Origin: Alphaproteobacteria bacterium
Lineage (GTDB): Bacteria; Pseudomonadota; Alphaproteobacteria; Micavibrionales; UBA2020
Length of the DNA stretch: 64,000 nucleotides
Reading direction: 5' to 3'
Assembly (NCBI GenBank): GCA_027483355.1
Contig: JAIXUW010000292.1
Coordinates: 4,628 to 68,627 of the forward strand
The position numbers and the translations under genes are program-made. The notes under the pieces were generated by a model. It made no database searches and was not told the origin of the DNA. It saw only the letters and a list, made by a program, of their open reading frames with translations. Positions 54,913-57,198 of the stretch are shown one piece after another; positions within the stretch are counted from its first letter, which is position 1, and each line of letters starts with the position of its first letter.

Positions 54913-57198
54913 TTACATCTGTAGCGAGGGAAGAGTGTACATTTTCATTCCGTCCAATTCCATGGCACTAAATGCAGAACCAAGAGCCGAGGTTCTCGCG
55001 ACAACTGCTTCTTGTGACTTCATGCCCGATGCCAAGACCTCTGTCAAGTTTGCGACGTTGGACAATCTCAAGAATCTGTCGAGTTCACCCATGCCTCTGT
55101 TGTAATGAGCAACTCGTGGGTCGATTGGTTGTTGCGGCTGCTGCTGGGGCTGCTGCGAAGCGGCCTGGTTGTTGGACGACTGACCAACCGCGAAGGCGCC
55201 CGATTGAGCAGGGGCAGATGCGGGAATATTCAACTGCAAATTCGCAGAAGAAACATTTGGCGCTCCGAATCTCGAGGCAGCAAGCTCTGCTGTGAGATAC
55301 ATGTAGCTAGGAGTACGAGGTTGCTCGGCCTGATTCGGGGCCTGACCAACTTGAGGGGCTTCAGATCCAGCGACACCGCCTGCCTTGGACTTGGCGGCCA
55401 AATCAAGATCGTGCAACTGCTGCTGGAGTCGGGCTTCTGCTTCGCGTCCGGACTGAATTCCAGCGGGCCCATTCGCACCGGCCTTGCTCGCCTTCATTTT
55501 GACGACAATATTCTTGACCACATTGTATCCGTTCTCTCCTGCACTTCCAGGCTCCGACAAGAGTGCGGCGGCAGCGGCGAGCTCTTCTTGAGTGGCACCA
55601 CTTTCGTGGTAGCTGTTCAAGAGGTCTTGGCGGCGTTGCAATTCAACATGCTTCTGGACGGCTTCTTTTCTAGCGTTTTCCATAATCTTTTCTAATTCTT
55701 CGGGAGCGATCGCGTACATTCCAACGGGGAGGTCACCATTCTGCTTGGGAGCCAGTTGATGCTGATTGTTTCCACTAGGATCCTGCTTTTTTGTTTCTGT
55801 GGCGACTCTCTTTGAGACTGACTCGGCATCAGCGGCCTTTGGAGCGGATGTGTCAGCACCAGTCTGATCCTGAGTAGCAGGCTCAGTGTCCGAGTGCGAT
55901 CTCTTAACTCCTCTTCCAGGAGGAACTTCGGCTCCTGTATTTGAATTGGGATTGGGTTGTTCGGCGGGAGCGGGAGCGGCGGCGGCAGCGTCCGATGGCT
56001 GCGCTGGGGCAGCGGGAGCGGGGACAGCGGGAGCCGCGTTGGCCAAACCCGGAATTTGAAGCTTGAATGGCTCTGACTTGTTGAGTAAATTAGCAGGGAT
56101 ACCCGGAGCAGCAGCTGGCTGTTGCGGTTGGGCAGGAGGCTGTACAGCGGGCTGCTGTGGCTGTGACTGTGGCTGAGGTTGGCCCTCCATGACAATTTCC
56201 GGACCTGGTGACTCGCTTAAACTTGGCTGCGGCACGTTCTCATTGACAACTTGGACTGGCGGGTCTGCTGCTTTTGGAATTTCCTCGGTTTTATTTGTAT
56301 CCGCCGCGATTACAGGCGCTGCTGCTTCGGGCGCTTGCTCGGTCACGACGACACTAGGCGGTTCAACAATTTCCTCAATGACCGGAGCAGGTCGAAGCGT
56401 TTGGCCCGGATTTTTGTATCTTTCTACTACCGCGGGCGGTGCGTATTCCATAATAGTAGCAGGAGCGATCTCCTTCAGTGCCATTCCCAACTGACTTCCA
56501 TTGTCAATTGCAATCTCCTTGTCAGAAGCCGTTTTCGAATGCGCCTTGTAATACCCTTTCGTGCCGCGAGGAAGGTTGTACATGCTTGCGATTTTGACAC
56601 GCCTGTCCATCAAGTTCAGTGCATTCATGTCGTTCTTGTTAATGTAGGCCGCCGACTGAGGCAAGTTCTGGCGAACTCTCGAGAAGAAAGCCGAAGGATC
56701 CGTGTCGTAGTCTTGAACCCACGTGCCGTTGTCGCCAAAATCGGGGTCCTCGACAAGAGACATGTGATACATTTCAAGAGTATCCTTGCCTGATTTGGTG
56801 GGGTCGAGAGGAGCACCTGTGTCAATCGCCAAATGCATAATGTTCAAAGGACTGAGGCCCATAGGTGGTTTGCCGTGCGCCTTACGATGACTAATTCTCT
56901 CCGTGATCAGTTTCACCTTTTCGGGATCGTCCACGGTACCAATGCAACCGAGCCCGTTGTCTTTAGTGCGATAGGCGGCTAGCATGCGGCCACACTTGTC
57001 CAATTCGTGATCCCACGTCACCATCACATGCGACTGATGCTTATCTCGCAAGTCGGAGACGGCATCTACGATCTTGTCAACTTCGTCGGGTTTGAGGTAC
57101 GTAGACACCGCTTTTTGCGTCAGTTCGCTATGCGCCGGGATGCCTTTTCCGTAAAAGTATAGGGCTGTAGGAGCAGAATCTGCGCTTGGCGGCTCCAT
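54913..57198 (-). CDS. Capsid maturation protease (assemblin-like) fused to a scaffold protein
   Basis: The N-terminal roughly 220 aa carry His/Ser/His candidates in herpes-like contexts: HVMVTWDHE, MGLSPLNIMH and YHMSLVEDP (compare FxHV(A/S)LC). A Q/P/A-rich linker (QPQPQSQPQQPAVQPPAQPQQPAAAPG) follows, then a helical Q/A-rich C-terminal part. Assemblin-type cleavage-site candidates are YYKA/HS (A219) and VLA/SG (A723, 38 aa from the C-terminus). Confidence 0.65.
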   Translation of the reverse strand: MEPPSADSAPTALYFYGKGIPAHSELTQKAVSTYLKPDEVDKIVDAVSDLRDKHQSHVMVTWDHELDKCGRMLAAYRTKDNGLGCIGTVDDPEKVKLITERISHRKAHGKPPMGLSPLNIMHLAIDTGAPLDPTKSGKDTLEMYHMSLVEDPDFGDNGTWVQDYDTDPSAFFSRVRQNLPQSAAYINKNDMNALNLMDRRVKIASMYNLPRGTKGYYKAHSKTASDKEIAIDNGSQLGMALKEIAPATIMEYAPPAVVERYKNPGQTLRPAPVIEEIVEPPSVVVTEQAPEAAAPVIAADTNKTEEIPKAADPPVQVVNENVPQPSLSESPGPEIVMEGQPQPQSQPQQPAVQPPAQPQQPAAAPGIPANLLNKSEPFKLQIPGLANAAPAVPAPAAPAQPSDAAAAAPAPAEQPNPNSNTGAEVPPGRGVKRSHSDTEPATQDQTGADTSAPKAADAESVSKRVATETKKQDPSGNNQHQLAPKQNGDLPVGMYAIAPEELEKIMENARKEAVQKHVELQRRQDLLNSYHESGATQEELAAAAALLSEPGSAGENGYNVVKNIVVKMKASKAGANGPAGIQSGREAEARLQQQLHDLDLAAKSKAGGVAGSEAPQVGQAPNQAEQPRTPSYMYLTAELAASRFGAPNVSSANLQLNIPASAPAQSGAFAVGQSSNNQAASQQPQQQPQQPIDPRVAHYNRGMGELDRFLRLSNVANLTEVLASGMKSQEAVVARTSALGSAFSAMELDGMKMYTLPSLQM

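Follow-up and report, generated by a model that had tools for sequence, protein, structure and literature searches.

The closest described counterparts of the gene considered here are the assemblin-scaffold precursors of herpesviruses (UL26/UL26.5 of herpes simplex virus 1 [HSV-1] and UL80 of human cytomegalovirus [HCMV]; MEROPS family S21) and the prohead proteases of the HK97 and T4 gp21 type. Assemblins, whose fold is a helix-flanked beta-barrel, and phage prohead proteases share one fold and belong to one clan. In phages a C-terminal part, for targeting or scaffolding, delivers the protease into the procapsid, and in phage lambda (C/Nu3) the scaffold gene is nested in frame in the protease gene. 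A nested scaffold transcript is conserved across the Herpesvirales, and in ostreid herpesvirus 1 (OsHV-1) a 689-aa fusion embeds an in-frame 367-aa scaffold open reading frame (ORF) with its own, more abundant transcript (PMC11565193). For the Mirusviricota, a capsid maturation protease was listed among the hallmark genes with no further detail (Gaia et al., 2023; PMC10132985), later papers discuss neither protease nor scaffold (PMC12768974; PMC12606086), and none of the three describes a scaffold fusion, catalytic residues, cleavage sites, an expression strategy, or an internal element. A 64,000-nucleotide stretch of contig JAIXUW010000292.1 (assembly GCA_027483355.1; hereafter the window) contains a gene whose probable product joins two proteins of a mirusvirus-like eukaryotic virus related to herpesviruses, the capsid maturation protease and the internal scaffolding protein. 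Within the coding sequence of this gene lies a conserved DNA element favoured here as an internal promoter. The gene and its principal parts are as follows.

54913-57198, minus strand: protease-scaffold fusion ORF, 761 aa, ATG start, stop codon at 54913-54915.
56542-57198, minus strand: residues 1-219, predicted assemblin/HK97-type serine protease domain (AlphaFold, Foldseek, and BFVD).
55705-56412, minus strand: residues 263-498, disordered Pro/Ala/Gln-rich linker.
55381-55704, minus strand: residues 499-606, helical scaffold core.

When 1.84 billion representatives were searched exhaustively with a HMMER profile, 12 hits were returned, ten of which (P0001-P0006 and P0008-P0011, where P0001 is identical to the window protein) were accepted as true homologues, while P0007 and P0012 were rejected as repeat proteins matched by chance. 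P0001 lies on a 292,368-bp NCBI contig. The ten proteins span 610-1112 aa and share one layout: the N-terminal region, conserved over about 220-260 aa, leads into a low-complexity linker, and helical blocks can be aligned in the C-terminal part. The same three parts appeared in the full-length AlphaFold model, in which residues 1-262 were folded, residues 263-498 were disordered with a predicted local distance difference test (pLDDT) of about 30-35 and secondary structure only at 461-472, and helices followed from residue 499. The ORF and the protease, linker, and scaffold architecture proposed in an initial annotation of this DNA, made from its letters alone, were thereby confirmed. The nearest homologue, P0002 (38% identity), was the sole relative recovered by word-indexed search and lies on a Tara Oceans metagenome scaffold (locus L001), where the gene order around it resembles that of the window and the neighbours are conserved. 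Alignments A2, A5, and A6, run against viral, prokaryotic-genome, and metagenome contigs, gave no related loci.

Structure prediction carries the identification of the protease. The AlphaFold model of residues 1-262, built from the ten-sequence alignment, reached a pLDDT of 82.5 and a predicted template modelling score of 0.81, with low confidence confined to residues 1-5 and 121-142. The top 50 Foldseek matches in the PDB were all herpesvirus proteases (E 4e-6 to 3e-4, probability 0.99-1.00, TM-score 0.4-0.5), comprising those of Kaposi's sarcoma-associated herpesvirus, HCMV, Epstein-Barr virus, varicella-zoster virus, pseudorabies virus, and HSV. Among the predicted viral structures of BFVD, the best matches were herpesvirus capsid scaffolding/maturation proteins, followed by phage and archaeal-virus prohead proteases (E 2.5e-5 to 1e-3), and a fold search with the full-length model returned the same protease hits and added nothing for the scaffold part. 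The assemblin/HK97 prohead-protease fold is thus shown at the level of the predicted structure for residues 1-219; the initial annotation had made its call depend on such a fold in the N-terminal domain, and the Foldseek and BFVD matches support its presence.

Several results weigh against the identification. Pfam gave no hit for any of the ten homologues even at E<=10, with Peptidase_S21 (PF00716) unmatched, PDB searches by phmmer and hmmsearch with the single protein and with two- and ten-sequence profiles returned nothing, and PHROGs yielded only a chance-level match in the linker (E 0.25). The TM-scores are moderate, and hhalign of the family against five assemblins reached a probability of only 1-8%; as this alignment was collinear without significant probability, it was used as a guide only (the HSV-1 and HCMV protease sequences supplied to it were 247/247 and 255/256 identical to the PDB entries). 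In assemblins the third-His strand is followed by an oxyanion-hole loop in which two Arg are conserved (PMC4498786), and the low-confidence alignment shows no counterpart of this pair, the corresponding segment reading DPDFGDNGTW in the window and DPxHGxxGTW in the family consensus. No match was obtained by tblastn against 50,697 phage records.

The same data bear on whether the domain lies closer to the phage HK97-type prohead proteases than to herpesvirus assemblin, as a His-Ser enzyme whose third residue is non-essential. Such a placement is improbable, although the BFVD prohead-protease hits nearly match the herpes hits, the 52 residues between H64 and S116 are close to the phage type compared with 68-69 in HSV-1 and HCMV, Glu occupies the third catalytic position in two homologues, and the Arg-Arg oxyanion loop is missing. 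It is countered by the herpesvirus proteins standing first in both the PDB and BFVD libraries, and by herpes-like traits in the FxHxSL-like third-His strand, the long disordered linker, a basic motif that may be a nuclear localisation signal, and the eukaryotic-virus context, the last three of which also set this gene apart from phage prohead proteases. With a fold and a clan in common, the two groups differ by degree, and the predicted fold with conserved H64 and S116 is common to both comparisons. Relative to the herpes precursor, the fusion agrees in its N-terminal protease fold and in the succession of linker, basic motif, helical scaffold core, and C-terminal tail, and differs in having no detectable sequence similarity, a much longer linker (about 235 aa), the shorter His-Ser spacing, no Arg-Arg loop, the occasional Glu as third residue, His or Tyr instead of Ser at P1' of the candidate release site, and no conserved Ala|Ser near the C-terminus.

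Three residues are candidates for the catalytic set of the assemblin-like domain.

57007-57009, minus strand: H64, candidate catalytic His (WDHE).
56851-56853, minus strand: S116, candidate nucleophile (MGLSPLN).
56764-56766, minus strand: H145, candidate third triad residue (MYHMSLV).

H64 was conserved in all ten homologues and is paired by hhalign with HCMV H63. The Ser at position 116, in strand 114-119, was shared by nine of the ten in the MAFFT column next to an invariant G114, and because the tenth protein, P0008, has GLS four residues upstream of this column, the candidate Ser is effectively universal. H145 was His in eight homologues and Glu in P0006 (L006, IPEVAL) and P0010 (L008, LEEIAL). 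The initial annotation had placed H64 and H145 correctly and had recognised the conserved GLS serine, but had numbered it 115, which is Leu. S116 and H145 each fall in a predicted strand with the disordered loop 121-142 between them, and in assemblins, too, the corresponding strands are separated by a disordered loop. Collinear hhalign pairs were LYFYG/VYVGG, WDH/INH, GLGCIG/GLFCLG, MYHMSLV/FKHVALC (H145 with HCMV H157), and GTWV..DP/GTLAVYGRDP. Against this catalytic assignment, hhalign pairs S116 with HCMV S125 and not S132, a shift attributed to the family being without the HCMV helix ahead of the Ser strand. H64 and S116 would correspond in position to the catalytic His and Ser of the herpes enzymes, and the three triad candidates would be close in space. 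Two further residues were considered and rejected: S147 (HMSLV) as nucleophile, being Ala or Gly in four homologues, and the DPxHG histidine as third residue, being Phe or Tyr in four homologues including P0001. Crystal structures of the HCMV H157E mutant (1IED) were among the PDB Foldseek matches, and the two lineages with a natural Glu at the third triad position offer a useful parallel to this engineered enzyme. The persistence of the predicted assemblin fold and of a candidate His/Ser/His(Glu) set beyond sequence similarity tightens the link between herpesviruses and mirusviruses at the level of the capsid assembly mechanism.

By analogy with herpes UL26/UL26.5 and the phage prohead proteases, the scaffold part would bring the protease into the procapsid, where the protease would next release itself and then cut the scaffold, making DNA packaging possible. 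As a capsid maturation protease, the fusion gene is a further member of a gene class already expected in such a genome, a result at the level of annotation. The assignment to a mirusvirus-like (Mirusviricota) virus is inferred from context and fold, since the large neighbouring ORFs, including a 1411-aa ORF and terminase-like ORFs, have no sequence match in Pfam, PHROGs, or the PDB. The window also encodes a family-B DNA polymerase and a YqaJ-like recombinase. As with the Mirusviricota capsid maturation protease, a herpes-like protease is recognisable by structure or profile only, and the setting is that of eukaryotic plankton viruses, the nearest relative being on the Tara Oceans scaffold; beside the published descriptions, the gene is a putative member of that hallmark class.

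The most interesting result of the analysis is a short DNA element inside the linker-coding region, which offers a concrete hypothesis for how the amounts of scaffold and protease are balanced. Three features are involved.

56283-56298, minus strand: DNA element ACAAATAAAACCGAGG, encoding T-N-K-T-E, 16 of 16 nt identical to L001.
56188-56190, minus strand: M337 (ATG GAG GGC, Met-Glu-Gly), candidate start of a 425-aa scaffold-only product, about 100 nt downstream of the element.
13440-13455, minus strand: second copy of the element, ACAAATAAAATCACGG, 226 nt upstream of the 1411-aa ORF 8993-13228 (minus strand).

The element is fully identical between the window and L001, where the proteins are only about 40% identical, and the peptide T-N-K-T (301-304) that it encodes sits in an otherwise unalignable part of the linker. 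Its 9-mer core ACAAATAAA was found on the sense strand in seven of the ten genes. In six of them it is read in frame as Thr-Asn-Lys, every codon being identical at its synonymous positions too, and L007 reads it in another frame (Glu-Gln-Ile-Lys); L008 carries GAAAATAAAAC in its place, and L006 and L009 are without the element. When codons were shuffled, at most two genes had the 9-mer, and none of 2000 shuffles reached seven. Elsewhere in 346 kb, searched on both strands, the 9-mer occurred only three times, all orthologous, 226-272 nt upstream of the 1411-aa ORF (window, L010, and L011). There a 16-mer, TGTACAAATAAAATCA, was shared by the window, L010 (2722-2745), and L011 (2732-2755) in intergenic DNA that is otherwise unalignable. 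A metagenome scan for the 20-nt form ACAAATAAAACCGAGGNAATT gave two unrelated chance hits, as expected at that length. A role for TNKT as a peptide motif, for example as an N-glycosylation sequon, was rejected: the identical codons, the other frame in L007, and the non-coding copy together indicate a signal at the DNA or RNA level. An internal splice donor at the element was also rejected, as GT follows it in L001 and not in the window, L002, or L003. As a separate observation, the 16-mer in L010 and L011 is flanked by splice-like sequences (TTTGTAG|ACTGCT ... ATCAG|GTC), and TTTGTAG|ACTGCT recurs directly before the L011 start codon, hinting at a short leader exon.

Downstream of the element, M337 is the only Met in linker residues 263-493; it matches M319 of P0002, and the MEG context recurs in P0005, P0009, and P0006. 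Counted from 30 nt downstream of the element onward, the first ATG is in frame in seven of eight genes, and in the L002/L003 pair the longest exact run of the gene (20 nt) surrounds the MEG ATG and the second longest is the element itself. The favoured reading, by a modest preference resting on these sequence comparisons, is that ACAAATAAAAC (56283-56298) acts as a TATA-like internal promoter, which would drive an abundant 425-aa scaffold-only product from about 100 nt upstream of Met337. This reading is preferred because it accounts for where the element lies, for the in-frame ATG after it, for the conserved context of that ATG, and for the restriction of the element to two genes, that of the scaffold and that of the putative capsid protein. 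A gene for a TATA-binding protein is present in mirusvirus-like elements (bioRxiv 10.1101/2023.06.15.545109; PMC12606086). A nested scaffold-only product, as the initial annotation had proposed, is accordingly somewhat favoured with indirect support from the conserved DNA, whereas its start has moved: M239 (MALKEIA) and M250 (MEYAPP), the Met residues first named, lie where they were placed, but are Gln and Ile in P0002 and have no notable upstream DNA. M337 as the start is put forward more tentatively, at rather less than an even chance. Like herpes UL26/UL26.5, the gene would then yield an in-frame nested scaffold product, and the 425 aa within 761 aa compare with the 367 aa within 689 aa of OsHV-1, where the nested transcript was shown by long-read RNA sequencing (PMC11565193), while here it is proposed from DNA conservation.

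Other features of the element point away from a promoter. The element contains AATAAA, its only other copies sit 9-22 nt past the stop of a same-strand small gene (22 nt past that of ORF 13477-13836, minus strand, for ACAAATAAAATCACGG), and in the window AATAAA is under-represented in ORFs read in the sense direction, with 4 occurrences compared with 16 antisense and 19 intergenic, and lies 4-38 nt past the stop of several genes. All three points fit a poly(A) signal, and this distribution of AATAAA, with 3' flanks rich in TGTA, suggests that host-type cleavage/polyadenylation signals are used. The element might therefore be a cleavage/polyadenylation or termination signal of the AAUAAA class, which would truncate or down-tune the full-length transcript and give no mRNA starting in the linker. 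This explanation is considered unlikely: a site in mid-ORF would produce non-stop mRNAs, and the sequence after the element has no in-frame stop; a generic 3' signal would hardly be kept as an identical 9-12-mer at two places in 346 kb when the 3' flanks of other genes are degenerate; and neither the in-frame ATG in seven of eight genes nor the DNA-level conservation of its context in one pair would be expected. A weak out-of-frame ATG (an 8-codon ORF) between the element and M337 in the window tells against the promoter reading.

A little more probable than a 3' signal, although still doubtful, is that the scaffold is made as the fusion only and that the linker Met and the DNA element have a different role, for example as an RNA element or as a binding site. 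At least one Met is expected by chance in a linker of 170-235 aa, and L006 and L009 manage without the element; on the other side, a nested product sets the protease:scaffold stoichiometry in phage lambda (C/Nu3), and likewise in herpes UL26/UL26.5 and OsHV-1 (PMC11565193; PMC4498786), and the conservation of the element and the ATG context at the DNA level would still need explaining. With the internal promoter retained as the favoured reading, its extension, that the 9-12-nt element ACAAATAAAA(C/T)C is a virus-specific TATA-like capsid-gene promoter element acting both in the fusion ORF and upstream of the putative capsid gene, is a conjecture of lower standing, less probable than the start at M337. 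If true, the strategy of little protease and much scaffold from nested genes, known from herpes UL26/UL26.5 and lambda C/Nu3, would extend to mirusvirus-like viruses, and the element would be the first defined cis-regulatory motif of this group, as far as could be found in the literature.

Processing of the precursor was considered next to two segments at the end of the protease domain.

56536-56556, minus strand: G215-S221 (GYYKA/HS), candidate release site, the last element common to all ten homologues.
56413-56535, minus strand: residues 222-262, conserved helical segment (KEIAIDxGSQLG...EYAP), helices 222-232, 236-244, and 255-261.

The initial annotation had likened YYKA/HS, with A219 at codon 56542-56544, to the herpes release (R) site. 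The site is plausible and partly conserved, with the Y217 column aromatic in all ten homologues and [YF]-Y/F-x-A before [HY] in five (P0001-P0004 and P0010), but it misfits the (V/L/I)-x-A/S consensus, with Tyr at P3 and His at P1'. In the full-length model, strand 215-217 is followed by a drop below pLDDT 50 at K218-H220 and then by a helix, as would suit an exposed junction, and P0011 enters its low-complexity linker about 15 residues past the YYKA motif, which indicates that the helices after the candidate are dispensable. A219/H220 is accordingly the best release-site candidate, although cleavage there is predicted with little confidence. It is weakened by the variation at P1 (Ala in five, Leu in two, Ile in one, and Thr in two) and at P1', and by the folded state predicted for residues 222-262, which might equal the C-terminal helices of the herpes enzyme and so place 219/220 inside the domain.

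That competing possibility, in which YYKA/HS is a structural strand and loop within a protease domain extending to about residue 262 and residues 222-262 are the assemblin C-terminal (dimer-interface) helices, deserves serious weight while falling short of being expected; the same standing is given to its corollary that the true release site lies further downstream or follows no Ala/Ser-like rule. Residues 222-262 were predicted with pLDDT 59-94 and are kept in eight of ten homologues, Foldseek alignments of 257-268 columns cover them, hhalign pairs DNGSQLGMAL with HCMV DSYGLLGNSV, and the conserved aromatic column would suit a strand packed in the core. The segment is, however, absent from P0008 and P0011; in P0011, and largely in P0008, low-complexity linker sets in no more than about 15 residues past the motif; in the long Foldseek alignments the root-mean-square deviation is about 16 A compared with about 5 A for the 186-column core; and the low confidence at K218-H220 again favours a junction.

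For the scaffold part, the following further features were annotated.

55900-55905, minus strand: K432-R433 in GVKRSHSD, basic motif.
55483-55500, minus strand: K567-K572 (KMKA/SK), Ala-Ser block at the end of helix 552-572, alternative cleavage candidate (A570/S571).
55267-55290, minus strand: T637-F644 (TAELAA/SRF), Ala-Ser block 121 aa from the C-terminus, alternative maturation-site (M-site) candidate (A640/S641).
55024-55041, minus strand: E720-G725 (EVLA/SG), end of low-confidence helix 715-725, not conserved in P0002.
54916-55029, minus strand: residues 724-761, C-terminal tail with low-confidence helix 729-742.

The basic motif, aligned as KR/KK-x-A/S-x-D/E in eight of ten homologues, may be a nuclear localisation signal by analogy with herpes scaffolds (PMC4498786), which would be in keeping with the prediction that mirusviruses reproduce in the nucleus (PMC12768974). 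The scaffold core was alignable in all ten proteins and modelled at pLDDT 63-84 as four helices (499-532, 537-547, 552-572, and 584-606), with low-confidence helices again within 694-742. The C-terminal tail is inferred, from the herpes arrangement, to be the capsid-protein-binding end, and C-termini are not alignable across the family. The initial annotation had proposed EVLA/SG as the M-site: A723 (codon 55030-55032) does lie 38 aa from the C-terminus, but the site is absent from P0002 and its occurrence is at chance level. The protein has three [VLI]-x-A-S matches compared with 1.27 expected from shuffles (P = 0.13), and 8.5% of shuffled proteins have one 20-70 aa from the C-terminus; only P0006 has a similar site (MMA/SG), 38 aa from its end. 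At the 570/571 block, most of the ten show an A-S-(K/R)-like motif after a hydrophobic run, with uncertain placement in P0008 and P0010, and at the 640/641 block A/S is aligned in P0001, P0002, P0003, P0004, and P0010, with RQMAA/SN nearby in P0011. From this alignment the two blocks would be better maturation-site candidates than A723/S724, to which a low probability is given.

Among the neighbouring genes, the 1411-aa ORF at 8993-13228 (minus strand) has 57%-identical relatives on two metagenomic contigs, and from its size and conservation is probably the major capsid protein, an identity that no Pfam, PHROG, or PDB sequence match confirmed even with a three-sequence profile. The plus-strand ORFs 52408-53655 and 54049-54819, adjoining the fusion gene, look like pieces of a single terminase-like gene flanking an opposite-strand 228-aa ORF (53293-53979, minus strand); the first contains the Walker-B-like LAVFDEVQF, and no hidden Markov model or PDB hit confirmed the terminase identity. 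The same three-gene arrangement occurs in the Tara scaffold (L001 12268-14682) and is reminiscent of the split terminase of herpesviruses and of MING-1, the gene reported from an intron of mirusvirus terminases (PMC12768974). On its other side, the fusion gene is separated by a short divergent intergenic region (57199-57357), with the AT-rich TATTTAATATAAAT about 75 nt from the protease ATG, from an 805-aa ORF (57358-59775, plus strand), and in L001, L003, L004, and L005 the gene likewise lies divergent from an ORF of about 800 aa.

Elsewhere in the window, a 322-aa ORF (24741-25709, minus strand) gave a borderline Cornifin/SPRR match (E 3.4e-8, 34.2 bits compared with a cut-off of 34.8) that is probably a low-complexity effect, and the 197-aa ORF 29581-30174 (plus strand) starts with MIYVLRLAQGKFYVGMS, a sequence that resembles the GIY-YIG nuclease motif. 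Some 60 nt of sequence (about 46455-46540 and 48233-48300), among them the first letters of the 48263 ORF (ATGAACCATTCTCCAAT…), recur after ORF 45462-46454 and look like the remnant of a local duplication. Three tandem same-strand ORFs of 126-131 aa at 41132-42615 (minus strand) have similar N-termini (…FTKESLVDHAK… / …FTQATLADHVK…) and look like a small paralogous family.

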